DNA of 62,020 nucleotides from an uncultured Pseudomonadales bacterium (GCA_964432115.1 CAYSMC010000024.1:1-62020); one strand, 5' to 3'. Shown: positions 31,087 through 46,732, numbered from the stretch's first letter. Numbers and translations: made by a program. The notes: generated by a model from the letters alone, not told the origin.

Positions 31087-32064
31087 ATGAATAATGCCGA
31101 AAAAAGCAGAGCCAACATTAATAATGGTCACTCTATCCCTTATTGGTCGGCTACTTTGATAGAACGGTTTGCTGGTAAAATCTTATCATTCGCTGATAGA
31201 TTCTTATTAAAAGATGATGAGGAAGTAGATAAAACCCAGCAATTAGTTAATCAGTCCAGGTATAGATTGATTAAAGAAAGAGCTTTGGGTTTAGCAGAAG
31301 ATGCAACAATTAAAGTTGCTGGAGAGCGATTTCTAAAACAGCATAATTTACCCAGATATAATAAAGTTAAATGGCCCTTAATAGAATTTTTAGAAAATTC
31401 TCAAGAACGTCTGGATAATTTTGTGAGTCCAACTGGTTTGTATTTTCCCGAGTTTATTAACCTAAAAACTGAACATAGAATTTATGCGTTGAGCCAAACT
31501 AGAGATGAAGTTGAAAAGTTTATTTTACAAATGTTGGAAGACGAGCAATGCACACCTGAAGATTATTTATTTGTGTTATCAGAATTTTGGCCCAACGATT
31601 ATGGGGGCAGTGTCATAATTAATAAAGCAGGTGATGTGTCGATAGAATTGATGAAAGGATCACACACGCCACTAACTACAGGTAGGGGTAAAATTTTGCT
31701 AACTGCTAAGAGTGATTGTTATACTAAATTATTAAAATTTATAGAATATCAAGAGATCGACCCAGACTTACAAACAGAGCTTCGTCAGACCATTAATAAG
31801 ATTCTGGCCTTAATCCCCAAAAAATCAGTGCTGGTTAGTAAACAAGTAACGGGCAGGTTTCAAGAGGTAATAGACAATGGTGATGGGCCATCTGTAAAAC
31901 TTCCTTATGCTGGTTATTTTGAATTTATTTTATCCAGGTTAAAAACCGATTCAACATTAAGACCATTTTTTATTGATGCGCGAGTTGGCAAAGCAGGAGA
32001 TAAATATTATTCTGTGAACAAAAATTTGTCAGAGGAAAATAATCTATCTCAGATGGCCCGTTAA
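31087..32064 (+). CDS. Hypothetical protein
   Basis: 325-aa ORF, no recognised motif. Confidence 0.7.
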   Translation: MNNAEKSRANINNGHSIPYWSATLIERFAGKILSFADRFLLKDDEEVDKTQQLVNQSRYRLIKERALGLAEDATIKVAGERFLKQHNLPRYNKVKWPLIEFLENSQERLDNFVSPTGLYFPEFINLKTEHRIYALSQTRDEVEKFILQMLEDEQCTPEDYLFVLSEFWPNDYGGSVIINKAGDVSIELMKGSHTPLTTGRGKILLTAKSDCYTKLLKFIEYQEIDPDLQTELRQTINKILALIPKKSVLVSKQVTGRFQEVIDNGDGPSVKLPYAGYFEFILSRLKTDSTLRPFFIDARVGKAGDKYYSVNKNLSEENNLSQMAR

Positions 32065-32089
32065 CTGCTATAATAATGCCTATTAACAA

Positions 32090-32160
32090 GGGGCGGTAGT
32101 TCAACGGTAGAATCAAGGTCTCCAAAACCTTTGATGAGGGTTCGATTCCTTCCCGCCCTG
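32090..32160 (+). tRNA. tRNA-Trp(CCA)
   Basis: GGGGCGGTAGTTCAACGGTAGAA..AAGGT-CTCCAAA-ACCTT..GAGGGTTCGATTCCTTCCCGCCCTG; TATAAT just upstream. Confidence 0.95.
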
Positions 32161-32161
32161 C

Positions 32162-32201
32162 ATTATAAAAATAGAGCTAAATTTAGCTCTATTTTTATAA
32201 T
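32162..32201. terminator. Perfect 40-bp palindrome directly after tRNA-Trp
   Basis: ATTATAAAAATAGAGCTAAA|TTTAGCTCTATTTTTATAAT. Confidence 0.7.
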
Positions 32202-32208
32202 TGATAAG

Positions 32209-32365
32209 TGAGAGGAATCGAATGCCGGAGCAATAGGGCAATCTAAAGCCCATATTGCGAGGCGGGGTCGACGGGCGCGACCGAGTGAGTAGAAGCTTCA
32301 CGAGAGTGTGAAGCTTCGTAACGAACGACCGAGCGAACCGGTGACCGATTCCTTCCCGCCCTGCA
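32209..32365. other. GC-rich multi-hairpin element ending in a 20-nt duplicate of the tRNA-Trp 3' end
   Basis: CGATTCCTTCCCGCCCTGCA at 32346-32365 equals 32143-32162; outer AGGAATCG/CGATTCCT pairing; three internal hairpins. Confidence 0.8.
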
Positions 32366-32604
32366 AAACCATTTACTCAATAATTATTTCTCTATTTTTA
32401 TCTACTAAAATCCACTTCAAATTAGTTATTTATTTATTAGGTGGTTGATAATTATTAGATATTTATATATCAAATGATATAATAAAGGTTATCAGGGCAG
32501 TAAAAAGACTTGATCTTCTTTTTAAAGCAAAAAGAAAGATGAGACTACTTTTTTCTACCTGAGCACATTAACTTCTAAGCAAAAAAAATCAAACCTAGGA
32601 GGTT

Positions 32605-32820
32605 ATGATGGATGAATTTTTTCAAATAATGATTGTTTTTGTTGGCGTTGGTCTGATAATGACCATTCAAAGCTTTAGGTTTATGCTGGAACGGGCTGGT
32701 CTTTTAATAGCTCTTTTTAGCTTATTTGCATGGTGCGTCCCAATGGCTGGTTGGCTTTTTATGTTTTATGCGGCAATCATGCAAACTATGGAAGACTTGG
32801 GAATGGAACCTCCACTCTAA
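32605..32820 (+). CDS. Small hydrophobic membrane protein
   Basis: AGGAGG SD, hydrophobic 71-aa ORF, followed by a terminator. Confidence 0.7.
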   Translation: MMDEFFQIMIVFVGVGLIMTIQSFRFMLERAGLLIALFSLFAWCVPMAGWLFMFYAAIMQTMEDLGMEPPL

Positions 32821-32846
32821 TCAGCTTAGATGAAAGAATGTGAATG

Positions 32847-32880
32847 AAGCGCCCTTTTAAAAGAAGGCGCTTTTGCTTTT
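32847..32880 (+). terminator. Intrinsic terminator
   Basis: AAGCGCC..GGCGCTT followed by T-rich tract. Confidence 0.7.
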
Positions 32881-32897
32881 GTTTTTATTAAATAACC

Positions 32898-32930
32898 AAA
32901 ATAAGTTCCAACATCCTTCACCAATCCCTC
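32898..32930 (+). repeat. Cassette-boundary repeat R1
   Basis: AAAATAAGTTCCAACATCCTTCACCAATCCCTC. Confidence 0.92.
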
Positions 32931-32990
32931 TAGCATATAAAAAGAACTAAAGGTTATTCTTTTTTGATACATGTTAGAATTAATTAACTT

Positions 32991-33401
32991 ATGAATGAGG
33001 TAGATAATGATAGGGAGAGTCCCAAACATCCTAATAATTTATCAATTATTGATCTTTGTAACATATATTTAGAGATTATTGGTCAAAGTAAGAAACATAG
33101 TGAAGATAATTGGAATACTGCTATCGATCAGCTACTGCAGATTTATGAAGACCAGCCCGATTTATTGAAAAGAGACACCATTCGTTTGTGGAATGAAAAA
33201 CCAGATATTATTATTTCTTTCTTGGCAAGAATAAATTCAACTAAAAAAACTATTGGTATGGAATCAGGATTAGATATTAAAACTGGAGATGAAGAAGCTT
33301 CAATTATGAACGAAATCGATGCTAAATTAAATGAAGAAAAAGAAAATGCTTTTCTCAAAGGTATTCTAAGTGGAAGAATCAAAGGCTCCACATCTTATTA
33401 G
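32991..33401 (+). CDS. Hypothetical protein (cassette cargo)
   Basis: 136-aa ORF preceded by TGtTAGAAT. Confidence 0.7.
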   Translation: MNEVDNDRESPKHPNNLSIIDLCNIYLEIIGQSKKHSEDNWNTAIDQLLQIYEDQPDLLKRDTIRLWNEKPDIIISFLARINSTKKTIGMESGLDIKTGDEEASIMNEIDAKLNEEKENAFLKGILSGRIKGSTSY

Positions 33402-33418
33402 TCTGCAAGAATTAATTT

Positions 33419-33904
33419 ATGATAATAGTTACTAATTCACCATTAGAAAGATGGGAAGAATATAAACAATTACGGTTAGAATCGCTTAGCGACTCACCTC
33501 AGTCGTTTCTAGATGATATTGACAAAACTCAGGAGATATCAAAAGAAGAGTGGCAAAAAAAGCTTGAAAACATATATTTTGCCGAAATGGATGGTAAGTG
33601 GGTAGGAATGATTGGTGCTTATCAGGACGAAAGATCTAAATTAAATCACATTATGAAAGTTGTAAGTTTTTATGTATCTCCAAAATATCGTGGTCATGGA
33701 ATAGGGAAAGCACTTTTGTCAGAAGTTATTGATAAATCTAAGAAAGTTAAGGGAGTTAAGAAGTTAGAATTAGGTGTAATTACCACACAGGAAGCAGCTT
33801 ATCAGCTATATTTAACTCTTGGATTTAAAAAAGTTGGTGAACAAAAGTATTCAGTTAGGGTTGGAGATAAGTATTTTGATGAATATTTAATGGAACTTTA
33901 TTGA
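33419..33904 (+). CDS. GNAT family N-acetyltransferase
   Basis: YVSPKYRGHGIGKALL, LYLTLGF. Confidence 0.92.
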   Translation: MIIVTNSPLERWEEYKQLRLESLSDSPQSFLDDIDKTQEISKEEWQKKLENIYFAEMDGKWVGMIGAYQDERSKLNHIMKVVSFYVSPKYRGHGIGKALLSEVIDKSKKVKGVKKLELGVITTQEAAYQLYLTLGFKKVGEQKYSVRVGDKYFDEYLMELY

Positions 33905-33908
33905 GATT

Positions 33909-33942
33909 AAACCAAGTTCCAACATCCTCTACCAGTCCCTGC
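33909..33942 (+). repeat. Cassette-boundary repeat R2
   Basis: AAACCAAGTTCCAACATCCTCTACCAGTCCCTGC, 4 nt after GNAT stop. Confidence 0.92.
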
Positions 33943-34003
33943 GAAATATATTAAGTCAAAGCGTTCAGCACTATTAATCTCTAATCATTTATAATAAATT
34001 TAT

Positions 34004-34531
34004 ATGGAAAAAATATATTTTGTTCGTCATGGGGAGAGTGAAGCAAATGTAGAGCGAAAATTTGCTGGGCAAAAAGAGGATTCTCCATTAACTGAGCTTG
34101 GTCGAGAACAAGCTAAACAAGCTGCTTTAGACTTATTGCATTACAATTATCAGATTGATCGAGTTATTTCTTCACCGCTCGCAAGAGCTTATAAAACTGC
34201 GCAAATATTAATCAAAGAAGCAGGCTTGGATCTAGAAATTGAAATTGATCAAAGACTAGCTGAATATGATATGGGATCACTAACCGGCACCACTTATCAC
34301 AAAATAAATTCAAGGGAGCTGATAAGTGCCGAGGGAGCAGAAGACCCTCAGGCATTTCAAGGTCGTGTACAAAGTTTATTGGATGAACTTAGTCATGGGG
34401 ATAAAAATGTATTACTAGTTAGTCACGCGGGTGTGGGGAGAATAATTGAGGTAGCTAAAAAAAGTTTAGATCCTAATGATTTTTATGATCTTGAAGCTTT
34501 GCCAAATGCAAAAATTATTGTCCTTTATTGA
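34004..34531 (+). CDS. Histidine phosphatase family protein
   Basis: RHGES, SSPLARA..TA, E..MG, VSHAG. Confidence 0.93.
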   Translation: MEKIYFVRHGESEANVERKFAGQKEDSPLTELGREQAKQAALDLLHYNYQIDRVISSPLARAYKTAQILIKEAGLDLEIEIDQRLAEYDMGSLTGTTYHKINSRELISAEGAEDPQAFQGRVQSLLDELSHGDKNVLLVSHAGVGRIIEVAKKSLDPNDFYDLEALPNAKIIVLY

Positions 34532-34541
34532 TTTTTTTGAG

Positions 34542-34573
34542 TAAGCAAGTTCCAACATCCTTCCCGCCCTGCA
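34542..34573 (+). repeat. Cassette-boundary repeat R3 (hybrid with exact tRNA-Trp 3' end)
   Basis: AAGTTCCAACA + TCCTTCCCGCCCTGCA (16 nt identical to 32147-32162). Confidence 0.93.
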
Positions 34574-34634
34574 AATGATGCATTGTGATACAATTAAATT
34601 ATTGATAAAGCCAATTTATTAAATTAAGGAAAAC

Positions 34635-34946
34635 ATGACAAGAACTAAATATTCACCAGAAATAATGAGGGAGGGTATTGAGGAGATGTTACAAAGAAAT
34701 TTTTCTTTAAAAACATATCAGAGTCCTGAATTAAACCAAGCGATTGGCAGATCAATTCAAGAAAAAGTAGCTGAAGGCTTTAATTGGGGAACTATTATTT
34801 ATCCAGTATTTGTCCCGTTTTTTGTTTCTGATGATCCTGAAATTAAGAAAAATAGGCAGCAATTCATAGAAGAACATGGTGGAGAAGAAAATATTGAATT
34901 TTATTTAATTCGCAGAACGGGTGAAATCATTGTTTTGACAAAATAA
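34635..34946 (+). CDS. Hypothetical protein (cassette cargo)
   Basis: AAGGA SD; TAA stop lies inside repeat R4. Confidence 0.75.
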   Translation: MTRTKYSPEIMREGIEEMLQRNFSLKTYQSPELNQAIGRSIQEKVAEGFNWGTIIYPVFVPFFVSDDPEIKKNRQQFIEEHGGEENIEFYLIRRTGEIIVLTK

Positions 34947-34973
34947 GTTCCAACATCCTTCACCAGTCCCTGC
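34940..34973 (+). repeat. Cassette-boundary repeat R4
   Basis: AAAATAAGTTCCAACATCCTTCACCAGTCCCTGC. Confidence 0.93.
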
Positions 34974-35011
34974 TTGATAAAATTAATTCAATTTTAGAGG
35001 AAGATAGAGTA

Positions 35012-35353
35012 TCATTTCACAAATTTCAATTGCTCAGACGACCATCTTGGTATGTTAACTAGAACAAGCTTAAGTTCTTTTCCTTTAGACCAGTATTTTT
35101 CACCTTTCTTAAAATGGTAGAAGTCGCCTTTCTCAATAATAAAATTGCCAAATTCCGAGTGAATGACTCCAGAACCACTTAACACGTAGTAAATCTCTTC
35201 ACATTCAGTGTTTACAACTCTTTTCTGTTCTGGAAATCTTCCATTAATATATGCTATTGCAAAACTTACATCTTTACTTTGAGAGTCATACTCCCAAAAA
35301 ATACATTGATCAGAATTTATTTTCTTTTTTACCTGTGATTTTTTAATTAACAT
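35012..35353 (-). CDS. Cupin domain protein
   Basis: EEIYYVLSGSG..GDFYHFKKGEKY cupin motifs. Confidence 0.85.
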   Translation of the reverse strand: MLIKKSQVKKKINSDQCIFWEYDSQSKDVSFAIAYINGRFPEQKRVVNTECEEIYYVLSGSGVIHSEFGNFIIEKGDFYHFKKGEKYWSKGKELKLVLVNIPRWSSEQLKFVK

Positions 35354-35513
35354 AATTAAACTTGATTGGTTGGTATTTTAACGTTTATCACAGTTAGTCA
35401 TTATCTATGCTGTTGACATAACCAAGTAATACTTTTACAACAAAGCTGCTTTTAATATATCAAATCTTAAAGATTTATACGATAACCACTGTATGACACT
35501 CACGTTTTTTCTT

Positions 35514-35548
35514 AAAATAAGTTCCAACATCCTTTGTTAACCTTTGCA
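35514..35548 (+). repeat. Cassette-boundary repeat R5
   Basis: AAAATAAGTTCCAACATCCTTTGTTAACCTTTGCA. Confidence 0.9.
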
Positions 35549-35602
35549 AATACAAAAAAACTTGATTCTAAGTATCAAGCTCATAAGCTATAATTATTGA
35601 AA

Positions 35603-36168
35603 ATGTCAAATAATCGATTAATTAACTCTATTGCTATAAAACTTGTAGAAAAGCCTAGTCAAACACAAAAAAAACAAATTTTTAGACTCCAACAAGAAGT
35701 TTTTTCTTATATAGATGAAAAGGAAGCAAAAGAAGATTTTTATCATCCCGAATCAGCGCATGTTTTAGCTTATCTTGGTGATGACTTAGTTTCTTGGGCT
35801 GGCGTGCATATAAGTCAGCAAGTATTTCAAGATAAAAGTATTAAATTGGGTGGCTATGGAATTTGTACCCATACTAATTATCAGGGTCAAGGCATTGGTT
35901 CTTTAGTTTCCAAAAAGCCATGGAGTATCTTAAAAATAATGGGGTAGAGGTGGCATTTTTATCAGTTGATTTAGATAATGAATCATCAATAGCATTTCAT
36001 AAAAAGAACGGATTTGTGATGCTCCCACAGAAATATTCTTGGACAAATTCTAGTGGTGAGCTCAAGGAAGATAAGGGAGCAATGATTGCACCAGTCAATT
36101 CTCAAGAGTTATTCAACTATATCTTAAAAACAAACAAAGTTTTATATGTGGGCAATGGTTATTGGTGA
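35603..36168 (+). pseudogene. Frameshifted GNAT acetyltransferase (AAC(2')/Eis-like), split at an A5 run
   Basis: First ORF ends ..THTNYQGQGIGSLVSK; second frame continues AMEYLKNNG..FHKKNGF; one extra A at 35912-35916 would fuse them. Confidence 0.8.
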
Positions 36169-36171
36169 GTT

Positions 36172-36206
36172 AAAATAAGTTCCAACATCGTTCACTAATC
36201 TCTACA
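36172..36206 (+). repeat. Cassette-boundary repeat R6
   Basis: AAAATAAGTTCCAACATCGTTCACTAATCTCTACA, 3 nt after TGA. Confidence 0.9.
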
Positions 36207-36301
36207 AAATAAATTTTTAATTTACAGTTTTTCTATATCCTGATCTTAATGTCTCAAATAAAGATAATTTAATTGCATTTAAACTCTGATAAAATAAGAG
36301 T

Positions 36302-37174
36302 ATGAAAATAGTTGAAACAAAAACTTCCAAAGGAATAACATATAAAGGACTATTGTCCGTTCCCGAAAAGAATAGTAATAAGATTATTATTCACGTTCAT
36401 GGGATGGGAGGAAGTATTATCTATAACGATTTTTATGTCTCAATGCATGAAAAATATCCGCAGAATGCTTATTCGTTTTTAGTTGGTGAAAATCGGGGAT
36501 CAGAAATTATTAAAGGTTTTAAACGAGGTGATGAGTCTGTACTTTTAGGTAATGCTTTTGAAAGATTTGAAGATTGTGTGGAAGATATTCAGGCATGGAT
36601 CAACTTTGCTGTGGAAAGAGGATACGAAGAGATTTGGTTGCAGGCTCATAGTTTGGGTCCATCCAAAGTAGCTTATTATCTAAATCAAAAAAACCCTAAA
36701 AACATTAAGGGGGTTATTTGGTTAAGTCCTTCAGATATAATTGGTCTAGTTCGCTATTCTGAAATGATAAATGAACATAAGAAGCTAATGAAAGAGGCAA
36801 AAGAACTAATAAATAGAGGAAAAGGGAATGAACTTCTTTCTGATAAGTTATGGGGAGAATATTTACTGAGTGCAAAGACTTACATTGATTTTTTTGAAGA
36901 GACAGCTAATACGGCAATCTTTAATTATAGAGATAATTCTTTGGGTTGGCAGGTTGTAAATGATATAAGTGTGCCTGTTTTTACTATCACAGGGACTGAG
37001 GATGATGGCATTAAACCAGTTATTGATCCTAAAGAAGCAATGGTGCTATTGGAGTCAGAATTAAAGAATTCCCCCAGAGTTAAAACTGTTGTCTATGAGG
37101 GTGCTGAACACAGTTTTAATGGTTTTGAGCTAAGAATAGTCGATGATGTTTTGGAGTTCATAAGTAAGGAATAA
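36302..37174 (+). CDS. Alpha/beta hydrolase (DUF1749-like)
   Basis: HVHGMGG, AHSLG nucleophile elbow, GTEDD, GAEHSF. Confidence 0.88.
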   Translation: MKIVETKTSKGITYKGLLSVPEKNSNKIIIHVHGMGGSIIYNDFYVSMHEKYPQNAYSFLVGENRGSEIIKGFKRGDESVLLGNAFERFEDCVEDIQAWINFAVERGYEEIWLQAHSLGPSKVAYYLNQKNPKNIKGVIWLSPSDIIGLVRYSEMINEHKKLMKEAKELINRGKGNELLSDKLWGEYLLSAKTYIDFFEETANTAIFNYRDNSLGWQVVNDISVPVFTITGTEDDGIKPVIDPKEAMVLLESELKNSPRVKTVVYEGAEHSFNGFELRIVDDVLEFISKE

Positions 37175-37227
37175 TTTTAATTCGTTTAACTGAAAAGGCT
37201 AGGTAAACAAATACCGTAATAAAACCG

Positions 37228-37260
37228 AAAATAAGTTCCAACATCCTTCACTAAGCTTTG
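37228..37260 (+). repeat. Cassette-boundary repeat R7
   Basis: AAAATAAGTTCCAACATCCTTCACTAAGCTTTG. Confidence 0.9.
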
Positions 37261-37371
37261 TTTGAAGGATTAACCCTCATGTTTTTCTATAATTGACTGC
37301 TGAATGTTGAAAAAGCTTCAACAGCGTTAGCAATTTCTGATTAATTAATACATTGTGATCTATTTTGATTT

Positions 37372-38550
37372 TCAGTTAAAAGTATGTATTATTAAATTTA
37401 TCCAATTTTCTTTAGTATTTTTTTGTTTTTTTTGATAATTTAAATATAAATTAAATACATGTATAACTAGCGCTAAATAGAATAATACCTCAAAAGATTC
37501 TCTCCAAATAACTAAAAATCTAAGAGTTGTAAAAAAATCTGGTAAAATTCCTAAATTATGATATAGGTCAATGAGTGACGTCCCCCGGTCTGAAAATAGG
37601 CTACGATCTGCATAGGGGTTAAAAATAAAAGTTGGTAATAAATATAATACTTCTTGACCACGAAAACAAAATAAGTTTCTCCAAGCTATTTGCTGTTGAT
37701 TTTGTGTTGGCTTACTCTTTTTTAAATATTGTCCAATGCGCCAACTGGTGAAGCCGTAAACAAAGGCAAAGATATATAAAAGAATAAAAAATTCATTTAT
37801 TTCTTTCATATTGTGAATATTTAACTCATTTTGGTAGCTATTGTTTGTTTTTACTCGCATATTTAGTAGACGCTGTCCCCAAGAAATTTCCTCGCCAATT
37901 AAAAAAATAAATATAAAAATTAAACAAACAAAAATAATTCTTAAGAAAGGATTGATTTGTCTTTTTTTGGTGTTTTTTATAGTTGCCAAAAGAACGCTAA
38001 ATATTAATCCAATGCCTAATACGACAACCTGCAGCCATTCCATAAAATTATCATCATCAGTTCCACCAAAATTAGCACTAATTTTTATAAAAACTTCAGA
38101 ATTATAGATGTAAATATAAAAACACAATAAAAGAAAACTGAAGAAAAATAATTTTGCCCAATTTTTTTTGATAATTTTCCAACCAGTAGTCAATATTTTT
38201 AGGAAATAACTAAAAATTAATAAATCAAGTAAGATTGCTTGATTAAGACCAAAATTTTTGGTGACAAATGTTGGATGTGTAAAAGCATCTATTCCAAATA
38301 AAATAATGACTAACGTAAGTGTTATTGGTAAAAAATAATGATTATTAAATTTAATTAACCACCAACCAGAATTTAGATTTTTTTTAGGAAAAAAACTCAC
38401 AAAAGTTATAGATGCTAATAGTATTGCAATAAGAAGTCTTAAATCAAATAGTAAATACTCACCAATTATACCTCGATAGTTAAGTAGCTCAATTATGCCG
38501 AGAAGAATAATTAAAAAATAGGCAATAATCAATGCTATTTTAATTTTCAT
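37372..38550 (-). CDS. Polytopic membrane protein (EEISWGQR..ELNIHN family)
   Basis: Multiple TMs, very AT-rich. Confidence 0.75.
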   Translation of the reverse strand: MKIKIALIIAYFLIILLGIIELLNYRGIIGEYLLFDLRLLIAILLASITFVSFFPKKNLNSGWWLIKFNNHYFLPITLTLVIILFGIDAFTHPTFVTKNFGLNQAILLDLLIFSYFLKILTTGWKIIKKNWAKLFFFSFLLLCFYIYIYNSEVFIKISANFGGTDDDNFMEWLQVVVLGIGLIFSVLLATIKNTKKRQINPFLRIIFVCLIFIFIFLIGEEISWGQRLLNMRVKTNNSYQNELNIHNMKEINEFFILLYIFAFVYGFTSWRIGQYLKKSKPTQNQQQIAWRNLFCFRGQEVLYLLPTFIFNPYADRSLFSDRGTSLIDLYHNLGILPDFFTTLRFLVIWRESFEVLFYLALVIHVFNLYLNYQKKQKNTKENWINLIIHTFN

Positions 38551-38633
38551 GCTGACGCTAATTGTAACATTTAAACTTTAATTAGTTTGTATCCATTATT
38601 GGGGTTATTAGATAATAAAACCATAAAAAACCC

Positions 38634-38668
38634 AAAAGAAGTTTTAACTTCTTTCACCACTCCCTGCA
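38634..38668 (+). repeat. Cassette-boundary repeat R8 (diverged)
   Basis: AAAAGAAGTTTTAACTTCTTTCACCACTCCCTGCA, colinear with R4. Confidence 0.75.
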
Positions 38669-38700
38669 GAGAAAATATGGAGGCATAGTATAATTAAACT

Positions 38701-39777
38701 ATGCATAAAAAACCACTTTTTTCGCCGCATTTTGCGAAACGCCTCAATCTCAATCAAGCGGAAATGTCAACACTGCTCAATCGGGTAGTCACAGCTTATA
38801 ATTTAGGTCAATTCATCGCAGCCAAGGGTATAGAAATTGGCTACGAAGATGTTAATATTATTCTTAAAACAAACACTGGTAAATACCTTTTAAAAGTTTT
38901 AATTGATTTTATTCTCAAAAAACCACGTTCGATAGTTGCTAGTCGACGTTATGTTGAAACTATGGAGAGCTTTCGAGCTGATGGGATTCCTGTTCCTAAA
39001 TTGTACCCAGTGGTTAATGTTTCTCAAAAAGAACAAACACTAGATACTTATTTGCTCCAACAACAGCTGCCTCACAATCATCAGCCAGTTTGGATGTTGG
39101 TCATGGAATTTTTTGCAGGAAATGATTTTATTAAGCAGCCACCTACCATTGAGGACATTAAAACAGTGGCTAAGTATCTGGCCAAGATCAATAATTCTAA
39201 ATTAGAACGTCAACCTGCCTATGATCCATGGCAACCACATTATTTCCTACGCTCTTACAAAGAGTCTGCTGACTTACTAAAAGAACCGGCAAAAAGTTTG
39301 ATTCAAGATTTATTGGAAAATTTTAAAAAAATTGATCAAAAAAAGTTACCAAAGTCAGTTATCCATGCTGATTTTATGAGAAATAATTTATTAAAGAATA
39401 ATCGAGGTCAATATTGTTTACTTGATTTTGGAGTAGTTAATTTTGGGCCAAGAATTACTGATTTAGCAGTATTTTTAGCCGGTTTTTGTATGAATCCGTA
39501 TGATTCTTTGGAGAAAAATCGCTTAGCCTATCAAGCTGGTTTAACTGCGTATGATCAAGAAATACATTTGACTGCTTATGAAAAAACTCATCTTGTTACT
39601 ATGGTACAAGCAGCTTATGCATGTTTTTACATGCCAGCTCTTTATGAAAAAATGTTAGAAAACAATCAGACAGCGGAAAATGATTACTGGATTGGTGTAG
39701 GTGAAACTGGTTTAATAATGATTCAACAGTTGGAGCTGGAGCTGGAGTTGGAGCAAGAAAGTGATATGAGGAGATAA
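38701..39777 (+). CDS. APH / type II homoserine kinase-like phosphotransferase
   Basis: IHADFMRNN and LDFG motifs. Confidence 0.85.
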   Translation: MHKKPLFSPHFAKRLNLNQAEMSTLLNRVVTAYNLGQFIAAKGIEIGYEDVNIILKTNTGKYLLKVLIDFILKKPRSIVASRRYVETMESFRADGIPVPKLYPVVNVSQKEQTLDTYLLQQQLPHNHQPVWMLVMEFFAGNDFIKQPPTIEDIKTVAKYLAKINNSKLERQPAYDPWQPHYFLRSYKESADLLKEPAKSLIQDLLENFKKIDQKKLPKSVIHADFMRNNLLKNNRGQYCLLDFGVVNFGPRITDLAVFLAGFCMNPYDSLEKNRLAYQAGLTAYDQEIHLTAYEKTHLVTMVQAAYACFYMPALYEKMLENNQTAENDYWIGVGETGLIMIQQLELELELEQESDMRR

Positions 39778-39780
39778 ATT

Positions 39781-40356
39781 ATGTTGCAAAAGACACCTGA
39801 GAACCTAGAAATCAATCATCTAGACTATATTTGGCCAACTATTATGGCTGGAGACTTAGAAACAGCTAGACAGACAGCAGTCAAATACCGAGAGGCGGAA
39901 CTACGCACTGCTGACCGATTGGTTGAGGGTAGAACTGAAAGCGATATGGGTACTTTAATTCTTTATGCTGTTGCCCACGGTCAGGATGTACCACTGACCG
40001 AAATAGACCCTAACTTAGTAGAAATTTTACAAGCTACTTCTTGGGAAAGATTAGTGACTAAATTTCGTCGCCTCTTTATATCTAGGGAATTTAATAGGCC
40101 GGGTGATAGAGAAAGGCTGCTAAAAGAAATTGTACGAAAAAAAGAGGATTTTAGCAAAGTGCCTCCCATTGTTGTGTCTTTAAATGAGCAAGGTAAATAT
40201 TTTTTATTTGATGGTCAAACTAGAACGCGTCGAGCGCGAGAATTAAAAATGAAGACAATCAGAGCCTACCTTCTACCAAATGATTACCATCAGGGACAAA
40301 TTATTAGTCAAGCTGCAGAGATGTATAAGCAAGTTATTCCGCAGTTTAGAGGATAA
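39781..40356 (+). CDS. Protein with C-terminal ParB/Srx-like nuclease domain
   Basis: PPIVV..YFLFDGQTR..A. Confidence 0.65.
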   Translation: MLQKTPENLEINHLDYIWPTIMAGDLETARQTAVKYREAELRTADRLVEGRTESDMGTLILYAVAHGQDVPLTEIDPNLVEILQATSWERLVTKFRRLFISREFNRPGDRERLLKEIVRKKEDFSKVPPIVVSLNEQGKYFLFDGQTRTRRARELKMKTIRAYLLPNDYHQGQIISQAAEMYKQVIPQFRG

Positions 40357-40473
40357 GGTTTTTGATATTAATTTATCTACAATAGTATAACTTTTTTACA
40401 TTTGTTAAATAAGTTATTTTTTGCTAGAATTACCCAGGTTAAATCAAAAATATTTAAATAGAAAGTGAGAAAT

Positions 40474-40740
40474 ATGTCTGACTTAGAACGCAATATTGAA
40501 ACCGGAACACAATTTGGACCAAACTTAAAGCCAAATTCAGAAGTAGATTCAAAAGCAGACTCAGGACCAACATCAGCAGAGGCAAAAAAAGCAACTTTAC
40601 CTGAGGGTTATTCCATAGATGAAATGGGTGTTGATGTTGTCAAGTTAATGAGTCCTAGTGGAGAAGTGCTTGGCATGTACGTACCAGCTGCTACTCAAAT
40701 TATCCAAGATGCGATAAAACATTCACGATCACAGAAATAA
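40474..40740 (+). CDS. Hypothetical protein
   Basis: Short ORF, co-oriented with neighbours. Confidence 0.6.
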   Translation: MSDLERNIETGTQFGPNLKPNSEVDSKADSGPTSAEAKKATLPEGYSIDEMGVDVVKLMSPSGEVLGMYVPAATQIIQDAIKHSRSQK

Positions 40741-40840
40741 TTATTGACAGCTTGTTTGAATAATGTCTAACTTTGTTGACAATCAACTGTGCTAAAAAAT
40801 TTTACTTGTTGTTAGATTTGTTACTGACTATAATGAGTTA

Positions 40841-41074
40841 GTGACTAATAGTATATTTAATTTACAACGACAAATTGCTGAACATTTAATTAATTTATTG
40901 GAAAATCGAGAAATCACCATTAAGCGAGCAGCTGAAATAGCAAAACAAGTGATAAATATTATTCCAGAAGATTTTCCAGATTCCACACTAATTACAAATA
41001 ATGTCGACGCAGTTTTAGCAAAAATTAAACAAGAATTGCAAGTCATTCCCGAGTTAAAAAGCCTAATACTATAG
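40841..41074 (+). CDS. Hypothetical small helical protein
   Basis: GTG start 6 nt after TATAAT. Confidence 0.55.
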   Translation: MTNSIFNLQRQIAEHLINLLENREITIKRAAEIAKQVINIIPEDFPDSTLITNNVDAVLAKIKQELQVIPELKSLIL

Positions 41075-41097
41075 AAATCACAGGAAATTGAAGTGTA

Positions 41098-44000
41098 ATG
41101 AATAAAAACGGAGAAATTCATGTACCAGTCGAGGAAAAAGCAAAACAATTGAAAACAGTATCTCATTCTAATTTGCCAGAAAAAGCTATTAAACCAGAAA
41201 CTCCCGAACAATTTGCAAAACTAAAACACTGGTTTAAGGTTTTGCGTCAAATTTGTCAAGAAAGACCAGAGATAGTATTGAAAGCACTCAGTAAACTAGA
41301 AAAATCAACTGATCCATGGTCATGGGATGGTTTTTACACTGATACTTTGATAAAGGCAGAACCTCTAGCATGGGAATTGGGTGGAAAAAAACGAGCAGAA
41401 AAGCAATTTCTTGAATATGATTTAGATCCAGTTAAAACCATGCAAGTTGTGGAATTTTTGCGATCAAACGTCTCAAAGAAAGAAATTTTTAAAAAGAAAA
41501 AAGCTGAAAAAATTATTTCTAAACACTATATTCAAAGGTTCTATCAATATAAGGAACAAGATTTAGAAATTATTAAAGAATTTATTAATTCTTGTGATAA
41601 TCCTGTTCATTTATTGAAAGAAATAGAAACAATAATGGACTATTCCCATATTGGGAATCAATATTTAAAACAATTCTTAATATATGGCAAATCTCTGGCT
41701 AATAATGCTAAAGCTTTAGAAATCATAACTCAGCTCAAAAAATTTGATAATCTTGAAAAATTAGATGCCGGATCTTTAAGCTCTCTCAAAGATGAAAATA
41801 GTGAAAATCATTATTTTTTTCATAATGTACTAGATCCAATTCAATCTTTTTCACAATTAGATGAGGACATTTATCAAGAGCTATTTAGCCAAGAGAACAT
41901 TGATCATGCTCAACAACTATGGAAAAGATTGACCAAAAAGCCTCTACAAATCGCGGCTCTTTATGATTTATTAATGCTTGCTCACAATCCAAAAATTGAA
42001 TTAGCTTTTGTAGTCAATTTATCATTTCATTTAAATGAAATAGAAGGATCTCTTTTTAAATCTCCCGTGCAACTTAAAAGAGAAATAAACAAAATTGAAA
42101 TGGTTTACAAACTGTTTCCAGAGATATGGGAACTTTATAAGGAAGGTTTTAATGTAGATAATTATTTAAATCTTAGTTTATTTGATGACCAAAATAATTT
42201 ACTCAATGAGATTGAAAAAATAATTGCCGAAAAAGAAAAATTTTTAACAGTGATTAATAATAAACAGATTAGGAAAAATGCACAAATTCTTAAAAAATAT
42301 GGGTTAAGAATGTTTTTACCTAATGATGAAAAGTCTAGTCCCAAAGTAAGTCTTGATTATTTAATAAATTCCGATCCAGCTTGTTTAGAAAAAAGTTTAA
42401 TTATAGCTGACACAGGACTGTATGGAGACTTGATTGATTCTTTTTATCGACAAAATAATCTTTTTAAAGATGTTTGGCGACAAACTAAGAATTGGTTATC
42501 AGCATTTTCAGTGGAAGAGATAAATGAGGCTTTTCTACCAATAAAAAAAGAAAACAATATTAATTTAAAACCAGATCTGTCATTAATTGTTAATAACTTA
42601 GATTCAATTGAAGATCTAAAAAAGAGAGTGGCAGCCATTGTTAATCCAGACATTAGAAATTTGGTGGAAGACGAAGAATTTTTAAATAAGGTTGCTTTTT
42701 ATGAGCAGAGAGGTAGTCCTGACAAGCAAATATGGGCTCATATATTAAAAAAACCAGATTTATATATAGATTTATATCGAAATCAAAAAATATTTACGAA
42801 AAAATTAGATATTTTGCTTGAAAATAAATTTGATCTTCAGGGTTTACTTTATCCAGAGGGATTAAGTTTGTTGAATGATATGACCGAGGAAGAATTGACT
42901 CAAGCTAGTCAAGCTTTATTGACTGAAGATAATTCCTTAGGTAAATATTTAGCTGTTGATAATCTTAAAAAAGCCCGACTTCTTTCCAAATTGGACCAAA
43001 CAGAGCTAACTCAAATAGAAACTGATTTTCAATCAAATAGCACTTTTTTTAACAATTTCTATTCTGAAACATGGTACAACGATCAATATCTAAAGGCTGA
43101 AGATTTAGAGTTGTATTTAAGCTTTGATCAAGAACAAAGAGAACGGGTTTGGCAATTATTAAACTCTCTCAATGAGCGTTATGATTTTCGAAGAGGAAAG
43201 GAAATTTTTGAAAAGGATGTTCTACATGATTTAGGATTTTTATGTCGATTAAGTAATAACGAAATTCATCAGCAAAGATTTCAATTATTTTTAGATCTTT
43301 TAAACAATGAACAAGAAAACATTAATATTAATGATTTAAAAATTAGTGCCAATCAGCGAATTTTTGAGAAAATTCTAAATTTTTTAGAAAATAATTCTGA
43401 ATTGACTATTAATGACTACTTCGATGAAGAAGGAGTGGCTACTGTTAGATTGTTAAATGATTTATCTAAAATTCAGGATAAGGAAACTAATTTTTACGAA
43501 ATTACAGAGTTATTAAATGAAAAATCTCTAGCCAAGATGGATAGCATACAAAGAATTTTTTGGCAATTTTGGCAAAAACAAAACCATGGACATATAAAAC
43601 GGAGTTTATTGGAAAAGAAAGATCAATTTGATGCTTTGTCACGAGATAAATTAACAGCAAACCAGTGGTTGTTAGAGGTTAGTCAATCAGCTAAAGACAG
43701 TTTTGAAGTTAATACTGTTGGTGAAAATCAGAAAAATGTTTCAAAAACCAGACTTAGCTTAGTAGAGGAACAAGAATTTAAAAAGAAAATTTTAGAATTA
43801 GTTGTCAAGAAAAATTTAGTTTCTCCAAAATTTTATACTGTTTGTTCCGTGTTGAGACACAATCTTGATGAAAATAGTTATTTAATTGAATCTTTCGCTC
43901 CAGCTTTTAAAGAAGCATTTGGCTTTGACTTGTCGGAAGATTTTGTCAAAAAATATGATAGATTCTTTCAGAAATCACAAGGAGAAGATTTTGCTGCTTT

Positions 44001-45876
44001 AATTACTGATCACCTATCTTATTGGAAAAACAACAGTGATTTATTAAGAAAATTGGAGTTAATCGGTTGGGAGGTAAATAATTTTGATAAGTTTCGGAGT
44101 CTGGTGCAGAATCCAGAAATTAACACTGTGCTTGGGAATACAGATAAAGAATTATTAATCAGTTTATCTAGAGATATTGGTTTAAGTCCCAACAACATTT
44201 ATTATGCGAACAAAAGCTCTCTTGAGTGGTTAGAACAGAACTTAGACTCTACGGAAAGGAAAACTTTTTTCAAAAAAATTCTCAATGAAAAACCTTCCAG
44301 TTTCAATAGTTGTGTGGCAGCATTTAGATCAATAGATAAAAAAACAATTAATCAAATCATTACTGAGCCTCTTTACACCGAAAGACTTTTAGACGCTATG
44401 AGGGAATTTAATAACATTACTCCTTCTTTAATTACTGTGTATATTCTCAATCCTAGTGAAGGAGCTAGATCAGAATATCGTGAGAAAATAACCAAATTTA
44501 AAGAGGGTGTCCACATTAATGTGCCGATTATGTCTTTAGCTAAAGGTAGTGGTGGTATTGATTTTTTAACAGACATGATTGCTTTGACTTTTCCTGGAAC
44601 TAATTTTACAGAAATTAAGCGCGAATTAAGTCAATTGCAGGATCGTTGTCAAGATTTGGCCAATCTCAACATTCGTGAACAAGGCTATCAAGGACAAATT
44701 GTTTCTAAAGAAAAAATAGTACAGCTAAAAGACATTAATAAGCCAATAGATGACGGAGTAGTTAATTTAATCAAAGTGATTTTTGCCGATCAACAAGAAA
44801 AAGAATATTTAGCTTTAGGAGGTGATGACAAACTAGCTTTTCAGGGTTGGGCTAGGTTGTTGGTTGAAGCAGGAGCTACTAATCAACAAACTTTATTTAA
44901 AGATAATTTAACTGAGGTAATAGCTTGTAGTCGTGTTTCTTTGGGGGACAAAATTACGTTATTTGCTGAAAAAATGGGTGGTGACACCTCTCAAATACCA
45001 GCTAAAAATGAAGTTTTAAGTAAGGCGAAAGAATTGTTTGGTATTTATTACAAAGATAATGCGCCAGAAGCAATTGAGCTTTTTTTGCAGAAACATCAAA
45101 CAGAGGCCGATATCTTATTAAACAGATTAAGTGTTAAGAGGTTGAATAATTTAGAAAAAAACATTGCTGGTGCCAAAACAATTGATGAGGAAAGTCGGGC
45201 TAACTTTAAAGAAATCATTGAGGAATTGCGCAATAGTGGATTAGCCGAAGCAGAAAGACGGCAGTTATTAGCCAGATTATTAGCTTTTATGACTGATCGT
45301 AGCATTTTTGCTGGAACAACTGGTCTAAGAAGAAAAGTTAGTAAGGAAGCTGGTAAGATTGTTTTGCGAGATAAGGAGGGTCAAGATATCGATCCCAATT
45401 TAATTATTTCTGGGCACGTAACTAAAAATGCTGCTTCTTATTTCGCCAAAAATACAGCTGGTGTTTGCACCGCTGGAGATAAGGAACTATTTAATCGACC
45501 AGATCATTTTCATGTTAATTTAGTTAACACAGGAGGAATTGTTGTTGGAAATATTCAAGCTTATCAAACTACTTGTAACGGGCAGTCCGCTCTCATTTTT
45601 AGAGGTTTTAATCCTTCCACAAGCATTGTTTCTGCTACTAACGCTGAGATTTTGTGTGATCAGATGGTAGATATCGTTAAGCAAATTGCTGCAGATAATG
45701 ACATTACTCAGATACTAATTCCTGAGCAGGATTTTTGGCATCCTTTAACTAATCGTGTTGGTGAAGGGATAGATAAGTATTTTGCTCAAAGATTTTATCG
45801 TCCAGAAAACAAAGTTAAACTTTCATTTAATATTACAAATCGTAAAACAGTTGACTCTTTTTATCGTATCACCTAA
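41098..45876 (+). CDS. Large hypothetical protein (1592 aa)
   Basis: Long uninterrupted ORF; helical-looking body, compact C-terminal domain with GVCTAGD. Confidence 0.85.
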   Translation: MNKNGEIHVPVEEKAKQLKTVSHSNLPEKAIKPETPEQFAKLKHWFKVLRQICQERPEIVLKALSKLEKSTDPWSWDGFYTDTLIKAEPLAWELGGKKRAEKQFLEYDLDPVKTMQVVEFLRSNVSKKEIFKKKKAEKIISKHYIQRFYQYKEQDLEIIKEFINSCDNPVHLLKEIETIMDYSHIGNQYLKQFLIYGKSLANNAKALEIITQLKKFDNLEKLDAGSLSSLKDENSENHYFFHNVLDPIQSFSQLDEDIYQELFSQENIDHAQQLWKRLTKKPLQIAALYDLLMLAHNPKIELAFVVNLSFHLNEIEGSLFKSPVQLKREINKIEMVYKLFPEIWELYKEGFNVDNYLNLSLFDDQNNLLNEIEKIIAEKEKFLTVINNKQIRKNAQILKKYGLRMFLPNDEKSSPKVSLDYLINSDPACLEKSLIIADTGLYGDLIDSFYRQNNLFKDVWRQTKNWLSAFSVEEINEAFLPIKKENNINLKPDLSLIVNNLDSIEDLKKRVAAIVNPDIRNLVEDEEFLNKVAFYEQRGSPDKQIWAHILKKPDLYIDLYRNQKIFTKKLDILLENKFDLQGLLYPEGLSLLNDMTEEELTQASQALLTEDNSLGKYLAVDNLKKARLLSKLDQTELTQIETDFQSNSTFFNNFYSETWYNDQYLKAEDLELYLSFDQEQRERVWQLLNSLNERYDFRRGKEIFEKDVLHDLGFLCRLSNNEIHQQRFQLFLDLLNNEQENININDLKISANQRIFEKILNFLENNSELTINDYFDEEGVATVRLLNDLSKIQDKETNFYEITELLNEKSLAKMDSIQRIFWQFWQKQNHGHIKRSLLEKKDQFDALSRDKLTANQWLLEVSQSAKDSFEVNTVGENQKNVSKTRLSLVEEQEFKKKILELVVKKNLVSPKFYTVCSVLRHNLDENSYLIESFAPAFKEAFGFDLSEDFVKKYDRFFQKSQGEDFAALITDHLSYWKNNSDLLRKLELIGWEVNNFDKFRSLVQNPEINTVLGNTDKELLISLSRDIGLSPNNIYYANKSSLEWLEQNLDSTERKTFFKKILNEKPSSFNSCVAAFRSIDKKTINQIITEPLYTERLLDAMREFNNITPSLITVYILNPSEGARSEYREKITKFKEGVHINVPIMSLAKGSGGIDFLTDMIALTFPGTNFTEIKRELSQLQDRCQDLANLNIREQGYQGQIVSKEKIVQLKDINKPIDDGVVNLIKVIFADQQEKEYLALGGDDKLAFQGWARLLVEAGATNQQTLFKDNLTEVIACSRVSLGDKITLFAEKMGGDTSQIPAKNEVLSKAKELFGIYYKDNAPEAIELFLQKHQTEADILLNRLSVKRLNNLEKNIAGAKTIDEESRANFKEIIEELRNSGLAEAERRQLLARLLAFMTDRSIFAGTTGLRRKVSKEAGKIVLRDKEGQDIDPNLIISGHVTKNAASYFAKNTAGVCTAGDKELFNRPDHFHVNLVNTGGIVVGNIQAYQTTCNGQSALIFRGFNPSTSIVSATNAEILCDQMVDIVKQIAADNDITQILIPEQDFWHPLTNRVGEGIDKYFAQRFYRPENKVKLSFNITNRKTVDSFYRIT

Positions 45877-46096
45877 TCAATTTCCTTTTTACAAATTTGA
45901 TTACTTTTGATATATTACCAACATGAAAATTAAAACAGCTGGGAATATTGTATCAACACATCTTGGTTTTATTCCTCAATCAGCCAATGAAGCCGAGGAA
46001 ATTTTGGATCAATACGATAGAGGTCATTGAGTTGATTGTATACGAGCTCAACGCCGAGCTGCCGAAAAAAAACGCAATCGTCAAAGAAGTTAATCC

Positions 46097-46732
46097 ATGC
46101 TTAAAGAAACTCTGCATCAATTCCAACAAGTGGAAACTAGTCCAGACTTCCAAGAAAACTGCCGAATTGCTGATGGACTCTTTTCTGAATTCTTAGCTTA
46201 CATGCTTAATAAACAAGAGTTTCCCAATCAAAACATTAATTTGTTAACACAATTCGTGCTTAACTTATTTCGCGATGAACATATTTCTTTAGTTGCTTTT
46301 AAAAAAAAAGATTTTTATGATCATCTAATGTTATTTGTTGATCGGGAGGGGATGAAAGAGACCCCTTGTTTGTATATACCTAAGTGTTTTGTTGAGGATG
46401 TCGCTGAAACACCCGAACAACAAATAGGAATCATAGCTTCAGTAATGAGTCAGTGTCGAGATTATTTTTGTGGTAAATATAACGCTCAAAATTCCAAAAA
46501 TACACAAATAAGAGCTTTGGCTTATCAAGCAGAAGCGCTTAACACATTAGTAAAGCTAGCAAAAGAAGAGAAAGTTGTTCTGAATCTTAGCGATTTTCAA
46601 ATAGGTTTATTAAGTGAATTTCCTAATGGTTTAGCAGATTTAGAGGAATGGCTGTGGTATCCTGACCCAAAATACCAAGAAACTTTTAGTCCACCTTTAT
46701 ATAATTTTTTATATAATCCTTCACGCAATTAA
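46097..46732 (+). CDS. Hypothetical protein
   Basis: 211-aa ORF. Confidence 0.7.
   Translation: MLKETLHQFQQVETSPDFQENCRIADGLFSEFLAYMLNKQEFPNQNINLLTQFVLNLFRDEHISLVAFKKKDFYDHLMLFVDREGMKETPCLYIPKCFVEDVAETPEQQIGIIASVMSQCRDYFCGKYNAQNSKNTQIRALAYQAEALNTLVKLAKEEKVVLNLSDFQIGLLSEFPNGLADLEEWLWYPDPKYQETFSPPLYNFLYNPSRN

Follow-up and report, generated by a model that had tools for sequence, protein, structure and literature searches.

We analyzed a stretch of 62,020 nucleotides (nt), referred to here as the window, which was deposited as DNA of an uncultured Pseudomonadales bacterium (GCA_964432115.1 CAYSMC010000024.1:1-62020) and forms contig C24 of genome G000, a 96%-complete assembly of 785,920 bases in 42 contigs. 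Downstream of a tryptophan transfer RNA gene (tRNA-Trp) in the window, eight copies of a short repeat span positions 32899 to 38668, all on the plus strand, and separate small units of DNA that mostly carry one gene each. An initial annotation, made from the sequence of the window alone, had described this region as an integron-like array of gene cassettes. The array is restricted to a single locus of the genome and is built on a conserved site; related arrays share whole units across genera, and the breakpoints between them fall at the sites.

The 13-mer AAGTTCCAACATC occurs exactly on the plus strand at 32903, 33914, 34547, 34945, 35519, 36177, and 37233, and a diverged eighth copy (38639) was found by both repeat finding and profile search. 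When up to 2 mismatches were allowed, the window contained 11 matches to this 13-mer (shuffle mean, 2.49), a number reached in 0 of 100 shuffles. The distances from one repeat start to the next were 1011, 633, 398, 574, 658, 1056, and 1406 bases. Each interval between repeats holds one gene, except the first, which holds two; two genes of the array lie on the minus strand, and the orientation of the repeat stays constant regardless of gene direction. Pattern, repeat, and profile searches thus bear out the initial annotation in its count of eight co-oriented copies, seven of them with exact 13-nt cores and one diverged, and in its spacing of 0.4 to 1.4 kb with one gene per interval (two in one interval) in either orientation.

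A profile made from 88 copies of many genomes, searched against all 785,920 bases of the genome, found the 8 array copies alone (E values from 1.9e-12 to 2.5e-6; next match, 0.68). The initial annotation had seen the motif nowhere else in the window, and this search extends the statement to the genome. An exact 13-mer at contig C12:2405 was a chance match, with flanks that lack similarity and unrelated surrounding sequence, and weak profile matches on contigs C9, C26, and C2 were also due to chance. The left half of the site is perfect in seven window copies; several right halves are degenerate, and the terminal TGCA is preserved in three of the eight copies.

An alignment of 97 distinct copies from many genera defined a conserved 34-nt block, AAATAGGTTCNAACATCNTTCACTAGTCCCTGCA, with two sharp edges and two nearly free positions seven bases apart. 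The repeat of ~33 bp in the initial annotation is therefore real, and its conserved unit is 34 nt with sharp edges. The site and the tRNA-Trp end of the genus share GGTTC.A, CCTTC, and CCCTGCA, so the resemblance to tRNA-Trp that had been described earlier stands in part, but the site is 5 nt longer than the corresponding tRNA segment and does not covary with the tRNA, remaining unchanged in genera with other T-stem and acceptor-stem sequences in their tRNA-Trp. Folding energies of 103 copies, calculated on both strands for the core and for the core with 15 or 30 nt of flank, equaled those of shuffled sequences, and the consensus site folds at 0.0 and −0.4 kcal/mol; as stated in the initial annotation, the array lacks attC-type hairpins. 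The site often overlaps a stop codon. A promoter scan was uninformative (28 sites, with 32.2 expected). Inspection by eye showed −10-like boxes (TGATATAAT or TATAAT) after several sites, and these boxes, together with 22 inverted open reading frames (ORFs), hint that units have their own promoters.

Across genomes, we measured 79 intervals between successive sites, which ranged from 364 to 3241 bp (median, 805 bp). Nearly three-fifths of these units (47/79) carry one ORF of at least 60 amino acids (aa), and of the unit ORFs, 94 have the orientation of the site and 22 the opposite one. When 107 unit ORFs of genomes other than that of the window were scanned with Pfam, 58 families matched; the 25 commonest form the list considered here, and the remaining 33 are not shown. 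Toxins among these 25 were RelE, YafQ, and HigB-type proteins, with small ribbon-helix-helix partners; other families were Fic/DOC, GNAT, NUDIX, methyltransferases, HD domains, an M48 peptidase, and a RecQ-like helicase. This mix is typical of the cargo of chromosomal cassette arrays. No recombinase family was found among the 25 of 58 families listed for the 107 unit ORFs or, by Pfam scan, among 9 window ORFs. Genes at the distal edges of arrays were ordinary (a methyltransferase, an M50 peptidase, a protein of the metallo-beta-lactamase fold, and one protein without a Pfam family).

Other species of the genus, and other genera as well, have the repeat downstream of their tRNA-Trp. In a scan of the family with a 17-mer (up to 2 mismatches), 68 of 140 genomes matched, many with clusters on one strand, such as 15 copies in G148 and 8 in G094; this count takes in one unpublished genome, G088, on which no conclusion depends. 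The reversed pattern, used as a control, gave 0 to 2 scattered matches in nearly all genomes and at most 4. A search of the order with a 29-mer, allowing at most 3 mismatches, gave matches in 47 of 286 genomes, including members of three other families, and the control gave 0 everywhere; the same 29-mer matched 1 of 364 genomes of the class outside the order. Complete array-free genomes such as G017 had no copy of the site in the 17-mer search. In a collection of named genomes, exact matches fell in 12 stretches, all from metagenome-assembled genomes, labeled mostly as Patescibacteria, Pacebacteria, or Paceibacterota and in four cases as proteobacterial.

Orientation and anchoring were uniform. 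All copies were co-oriented in every stretch with several of them (26/26 from genomes and 36/36 from metagenomes), and wherever a stretch held both tRNA-Trp and repeats, all copies lay downstream of the tRNA on its strand (22/22 and 16/16, respectively); a further 12 genome and 32 metagenome stretches with repeats had no tRNA-Trp on the piece examined. Single units closed by the 34-nt site were also found directly downstream of, and co-oriented with, a tRNA-Ser in G060 and a tRNA-Met in G094 (Table 1). The ends of these two tRNAs share with the site only GGTTCGA...GCA, and they look like secondary entry sites.

Synteny across the family covers the region upstream of tRNA-Trp, with genes for ribosomal protein L33, a 198-aa ORF, a 484-aa DUF6938 protein, and a 325-aa ORF; downstream of the last base of the tRNA, no synteny was found among relatives, and content was unrelated. 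For instance, G006 and G005 are 95.1% identical over 3508 nt, ending at the last base of the tRNA, and no match was reported beyond it. Beyond such boundaries, single units recur in different arrays. Unit 2 of G059 and unit 4 of G148, which belong to different genera, are 98.9% identical over 730 of 735 nt, and the 4 kb upstream of the two tRNAs has only the tRNA itself in common. The sites upstream of these units differ apart from their CTGCA, immediately after which identity sets in; it covers the whole downstream site (32 of 34 nt) and ends after the CTGCA of that site. A 592-nt unit was found in five genomes of several genera (G021, G143, G060, G146, and G093), where it occupies array positions 3, 6, 4, 4, and 2. 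The window unit at 35549-36172 is 92.5% identical to a unit of G005 over 624/624 nt, with the flanks of both genomes at ~73%, and the histidine phosphatase unit precedes this GNAT unit in the window and follows it in G005. An apparent common start after the tRNA in G001 and G021 was rejected as a shared unit, being just a promoter-like stretch of ~30 nt.

Two comparisons place a crossover within particular sites. The block behind the tRNA end ...CCGCCCTGCA in G003 is found behind an ordinary repeat, ...CAGTCCCTGCA, in L115 and L077, and G003 and the metagenome-contig block are 99.1% identical over 1258 nt starting at the common CCCTGCA, which makes the tRNA end and the site interchangeable as partners. 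Array L082 has exactly one unit more than L069, and the junction site of L069 combines the left flank of one L082 site with the right half of the other.

Contigs of public sequencing runs gave further arrangements. Runs X1 and X2 come from two studies; some of their contigs connect 32929 to 35555 via a clean site, skipping 2625 nt and four units, and others connect 36193 back to 33909, so that both joints are at repeats; the variant in these runs differs by ~8% in the GNAT unit. The contigs show a different order of units in a co-occurring relative, or possibly a circle, and no more. No reading is attached to short-sided joints from 31931 to 32089 and from 35683 to 36206 (X3 and X4) or to many loose ends, and parts of runs without cover were not counted as evidence. 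The initial annotation had expected the units to be gained and reordered at the repeats. In agreement with this, the tRNA-Trp loci that we compared have the same site and different genes, with breakpoints at the tRNA end or at repeats; whole units are common to different genera at differing positions; and contigs of public runs join units in other orders at repeats.

As a separate observation, two adjacent units are tandemly duplicated in G148:C1 (L030/L031, ~844.2 to 846.7 kb), with a 582-nt unit that is 100% identical between the copies and a site spacing that recurs at 1732 nt, which suggests recent activity in that genome. Several assemblies of the same genus also break near the anchor: contigs G001:C48, G003:C10, and G005:C27 end 0.2 to 2.4 kb downstream of tRNA-Trp, and G002:C26 breaks inside the tRNA-Trp gene. 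Variation of the locus within the populations that were sampled would be expected to cause such breaks.

Table 1. Features of the tRNA-Trp locus in the window and single units behind other tRNAs
Feature	Position	Strand	Evidence or content
tRNA-Trp (CCA anticodon)	32090-32161	+	ARAGORN; Rfam tRNA, 63 bits
Palindrome, GC-rich structured stretch, and tRNA-end copy	32162-32365	+	Repeat finding, folding
Unit 1	32366-32898	+	ORF 32605-32820, 71 aa, no family
Repeat 1	32899-32932	+	13-mer, repeat finding, profile
Unit 2	32933-33909	+	ORF 32991-33401, 136 aa, no family; plus GNAT ORF
Unit 2 GNAT acetyltransferase	33419-33904	+	161 aa; PF00583, 67.8 bits
Repeat 2	33910-33943	+	13-mer, repeat finding, profile
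Unit 3, histidine phosphatase	33944-34542	+	ORF 34004-34531; PF00300, 125 bits
Repeat 3, hybrid	34543-34573	+	Left half repeat-type (..AACATCCTTC), right half identical to tRNA-Trp end (CCGCCCTGCA)
Unit 4	34574-34940	+	ORF 34635-34946, 103 aa, no family; stop codon inside repeat
Repeat 4	34941-34974	+	Copy nearest consensus; profile E 1.9e-12
Unit 5	34975-35514	-	ORF 35012-35353 (-), 113 aa
Repeat 5	35515-35548	+	Right half degenerate
Unit 6, split GNAT gene	35549-36172	+	ORFs 35597-35947 and 35920-36168; 1-nt deletion
Repeat 6	36173-36206	+	13-mer, profile
Unit 7, alpha/beta hydrolase	36207-37228	+	ORF 36302-37174, 290 aa; PF12146, 35.2 bits
Repeat 7	37229-37262	+	Right half degenerate
Unit 8	37263-38634	-	ORF 37372-38550 (-), 392 aa, no family
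Repeat 8, last and diverged (AAGTTTTAACTTC...CCCTGCA)	38635-38668	+	Profile E 1.3e-6
Variable region without repeats	38669-46096		APH/homoserine-kinase-like gene 38701-39777, 191-aa ORF, 1592-aa ORF, others
tRNA-Ser unit	L064 = G060:C4, around 9684-10409
tRNA-Met unit	L065 = G094:C2, 3-912

Three features at the locus were absent from the initial annotation: a copy of the tRNA end at 32346-32365, the hybrid repeat at 34543-34573, and a frameshift in a GNAT gene. From 32162 onward, directly after tRNA-Trp, there is a perfect 20+20-nt palindrome. The next ~160 nt (32203-32365) are GC-rich and fold much more stably than shuffled sequences (z, −5.0). The last 20 nt of this stretch (32346-32365) repeat the 3' end of tRNA-Trp exactly, and the first unit begins immediately after them. 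Similar elements of 180 to 220 nt occur in G006 (L017:3572-3794), G146 (L039), and G064 (L036), each ending in a copy of that genome's own, different tRNA-Trp end, and the one in G064 is located 2.7 kb inside the array, behind an ordinary repeat. Besides the tRNA, no Rfam family reached its gathering score within 31500-39500. The element at 32162-32365 could represent either a small RNA that carries a tRNA-like tail or a miniature integrative element.

The sequence directly after the hybrid repeat matches the sequence that follows the tRNA-end copy in G006, and the start of unit 3 was also found at a contig end of G005. The split GNAT gene has one G fewer (35916/35917) in an AAAAAGG run than the intact gene of G005, and a variant with the extra G is present in contigs of runs X1 and X2; the missing G is either a frameshift or an assembly error. 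In unit 5, a cupin match was weak (PF07883, 22.3 bits, below the Pfam cutoff of 27.2). Beyond the variable region, similarity to G006 returns via a short match at 45874-45939 and then with the ORF at 46097. Because several sites have degenerate right halves and one cargo gene is frameshifted, the array of the window genome looks partly fossil. A homologous histidine phosphatase lies in an island of G006 without flanking sites; taken together with the degenerate sites, the frameshift, and the site-free distal region, it follows that arrays seem to decay distally, and in this genus they may be little active.

Among the neighbors of the anchor, the 325-aa ORF (31087-32064) directly precedes tRNA-Trp in every species of the genus, is restricted to that genus, and had no relative in Pfam, NCBIfam, or PDB. 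Its identity between species is 38 to 62%, compared with 66 to 98% for neighboring genes, which on sequence divergence points to a fast-evolving gene. The 484-aa DUF6938 protein was considered as a recombinase and rejected: it resembles glycosyltransferase-type proteins (Atlas search), has no PDB relative, and is also present in array-free genomes. A tRNA-Trp that adjoins an array always ends in ...CTG and then CA, and three array-free relatives encode ...CTGCCA; as two other array-free genomes have CTGCA too, the tie between this ending and arrays is only a hint. Genome G000 has 46 tRNA genes, and ARAGORN found no transfer-messenger RNA gene in this 96%-complete assembly.

We consider it likely that the locus is a chromosomal platform for gene cassettes, on which a recombinase acts in trans by site-specific recombination, and that it is an analogue of the integron rather than a member of that class. 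In such a platform, the 3' end of tRNA-Trp (...CCCTGCA) would serve as a fixed, attI-like entry site, and the mobile unit would be a short piece of DNA, usually with one accessory gene, bearing one 34-nt site that would partly mimic the T arm and acceptor end of the tRNA. A recombinase whose gene lies elsewhere would join the sites of units to the tRNA end or to one another, and units would be inserted, excised, reordered, and passed among genomes of one order of Patescibacteria. Entry of new units at the tRNA end is suggested by the comparison of G003 with L115 and by the tRNA-end element of G064, displaced by 2.7 kb, both of which fit older units having been pushed away from the tRNA. The initial annotation had proposed that units were added one after another at the tRNA by site-specific recombination; the predictions that it offered as tests each came out in favor of this proposal, within which we infer the site specificity, as opposed to a homology-driven reaction, and the entry at the tRNA end. 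The recombinase would presumably act in trans.

We mapped tyrosine (PF00589) and serine (PF00239) recombinases in the window genome and 15 others. At least one Xer-like tyrosine recombinase was present in all 16 genomes, and two (~290 and ~320 aa) were present in most; no other recombinases were found in every array genome checked. PF00589 had no match near the array in the window. The integron integrase model TIGR02249 stayed below its 265-bit cutoff in 6/6 genomes, with best scores of 72.5 bits in the window genome and 133 bits in the 5 array-rich genomes, the latter at least 170 kb from the array, so the initial annotation was right that no intI gene is present. Contigs C29, C10, and C31 of the window genome, which carry recombinase genes, contained no repeat-like or tRNA-end-like site. 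When the genome's own recombinases were compared by tblastn with 48 metagenome stretches, L115 alone gave a match, 5 kb from the first repeat and in an uninformative context. On contig C5 (L010:1162-3140), the ORF that directly follows one Xer-like gene resembles, on inspection by eye, a tryptophanyl-tRNA synthetase; this is probably a coincidence, if a curious one next to an array anchored at tRNA-Trp. By elimination, the candidates left are a reused Xer-like enzyme, an unrecognized enzyme, or one from elements absent from the assemblies.

Several findings weigh against a platform of this kind. No recombinase adjoined any array examined in the 16 genomes, and no tyrosine or serine recombinase separated array-rich from array-free genomes among them. 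In the window genome, recombinase genes are on other contigs, and in 5/5 array-rich genomes they lie tens of kb or more from the arrays or on other contigs. The two Xer-like recombinases are equally present in 5/5 array-free genomes, and large serine recombinases occur in 4/5 array-free genomes; three of the five array-rich genomes (G082, G147, and G242, which are 89 to 97% complete) had no PF00239 match at all. Scans of viral contigs gave no donor element carrying the site, and two matches there were due to chance (the right half of the site only, within coding sequence). The evidence from X1 and X2 consists of contigs, and one of the runs may be the source sample of the window. No circular intermediate was seen, and the backward joint may be a rearranged array, not a circle. 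The position of the crossover is also inconsistent between events: the two most recent pairs put it at CCCTGCA, the 3' edge, and the one-unit indel and the window hybrid copy put it in the left or central part of the site. Among 9 pairs of shared units, the likeness of the downstream sites was only slightly higher than that of random sites (0.814 compared with a background of 0.779), and in older pairs the sites do not stay with their units. Finally, some losses of units may be simple deletions between direct repeats, for which no dedicated enzyme is needed.

The alternative that survives best, which we regard as rather unlikely, is that the repeats are portable homology, with units gained by natural transformation and RecA-type exchange and lost by slippage or recombination, and with the conservation of the site reflecting a shared gene pool. 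Such a process would account for a crossover inside a stretch identical in both repeats, as in the L069/L082 indel, for a hybrid copy joined at the shared CCTTC, as in the window, and for sites that part from their units over time, and it agrees with the failure to find a dedicated recombinase. In the pairs with 98.9% and 99.1% identity, however, the identical sequence takes in, on the upstream side, no more than the final 7 nt (CCCTGCA) of a site that otherwise differs, or of the tRNA, and this is too little homology on that side for RecA-type exchange. A 34-nt block that keeps sharp edges and two free internal positions in 97 copies from many genera fits recognition by a protein, and neither the strict single orientation nor the single locus is demanded by homology alone. 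The units behind tRNA-Ser and tRNA-Met also count against portable homology, given how little the ends of these tRNAs share with the site.

We think it improbable that the array is the debris of serial integration by tRNA-targeting elements, such as prophages or tycheposon-like islands, each with its own integrase that was later lost. tRNA genes are classic integration sites, at which integration in series is reported to leave behind repeats of partial tRNAs along with degenerate remnants (bioRxiv 10.1101/2020.12.28.424599); the exact 20-nt duplicate of the tRNA end at 32346-32365 would be such a trace. The repeat itself is not a copy of the resident tRNA, however, given its additional length of 5 nt and its constancy where tRNA-Trp stems differ. 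Further, the 79 units are small, no recombinase was seen in the families listed for unit ORFs or in the window ORFs, and whole site-bounded units are exchanged as such.

It is very improbable that the motif is an expression signal after each gene (whether terminator, processing site, or tRNA-like RNA tag) and has no part in DNA rearrangement, because, although most ORFs run the same way as the site and the site frequently overlaps a stop codon, the site folds no better than shuffles on either strand, no terminator-like site was found in 32000-39000 (3.9 expected), site orientation is kept where the gene is inverted (22 ORFs), and the site occurs at this locus alone in the genome and coincides with homology breakpoints.

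The proposed cassette platform can be compared with several known systems. Integrons consist of the IntI tyrosine recombinase, the attI site, and cassettes with attC sites, which are structured, imperfectly palindromic, and poorly conserved in sequence; the cassettes lack promoters and are transcribed from a shared one (Pc). Like integrons, and most of all like sedentary chromosomal integrons and clusters of attC sites lacking integron-integrases (CALINs), the arrays here have a fixed entry site and run in one direction, with small, mostly single-ORF units that each have their own site; the cargo is likewise rich in toxin-antitoxin systems, acetyltransferases, NUDIX proteins, and methyltransferases, and units are reordered and found across taxa. 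Unlike integrons, they have no intI, their 34-nt site is conserved and free of hairpins, they are anchored at a tRNA end, and their host belongs to the candidate phyla radiation (CPR).

Staphylococcal cassette chromosome (SCC) composite islands place tandem units behind the 3' end of rlmH/orfX, with direct repeats that mimic that end; the islands encode Ccr large serine recombinases, units without a recombinase are moved in trans, and units are much larger. The arrays resemble SCC in carrying tandem cargo behind the end of a housekeeping gene and differ in their small units and in that no serine recombinase was found in 3/5 array-rich genomes. In pdif modules and integrative mobile elements exploiting Xer (IMEX), small modules between short sites are moved by a host recombinase, and pdif sites alternate in orientation and resemble dif. 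Small modules are a likeness, and the presence of Xer-like enzymes in all array genomes checked would fit. The sites here, in contrast, are all in one orientation, and no copy that could serve as a dif counterpart was found elsewhere in the window genome (the true dif of the lineage is not identified); Xer-like genes are, moreover, equally present in array-free genomes.

Tycheposons of Prochlorococcus form tRNA-seeded islands in streamlined genomes, in which newcomers push older elements inward, and they carry adaptive cargo, their own integrase and replication genes, and flanking repeats that are partial tRNA copies (bioRxiv 10.1101/2020.12.28.424599). The arrays are alike in their streamlined genome, tRNA anchor, push-in polarity, adaptive cargo, and repeats resembling a tRNA end, and they differ in units of ~0.4 to 3 kb, the lack of an integrase, and a distinct site that does not track the tRNA. 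The sole true duplicate of the tRNA end in the window that is of the flanking-repeat type is the one at 32346-32365. Full-text literature searches, whose coverage left out subscription journals and supplements, gave no description of such arrays, and in passages of a paper on gene exchange in Patescibacteria (PMC12455944) the words tRNA, integrase, and cassette each had 0 occurrences.

The proposed cassette platform extends over one whole order of Patescibacteria. We put forward only tentatively, as a possibility that we do not favor over its contrary, that it is a gene-capture system of a CPR order that is functionally an integron and shares none of its parts, worked by a housekeeping Xer-like recombinase with a second use or by an unrecognized family of recombinases and drawing on a cassette pool that crosses genera. 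On this view, new cassettes would enter at the end of an essential tRNA gene, and the 34-nt cassette site would act in double-stranded form as a mimic of the tRNA end.

Genomes of CPR bacteria (Patescibacteria) are very small, and how they acquire genes is poorly understood. If true, the platform, present throughout the lineage at one tRNA, would offer gene flow a concrete route that can be tested, and integron-style organization of accessory genes would have arisen independently of IntI and attC. The 34-nt site would be a sequence tag with which cassettes could be retrieved from any metagenome, and it points to a recombinase that recognizes a short, well-defined double-stranded site, which may be of practical interest. 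If the arrays do draw on a cassette pool across genera, that pool would be a main route of gene gain in these sub-megabase genomes.

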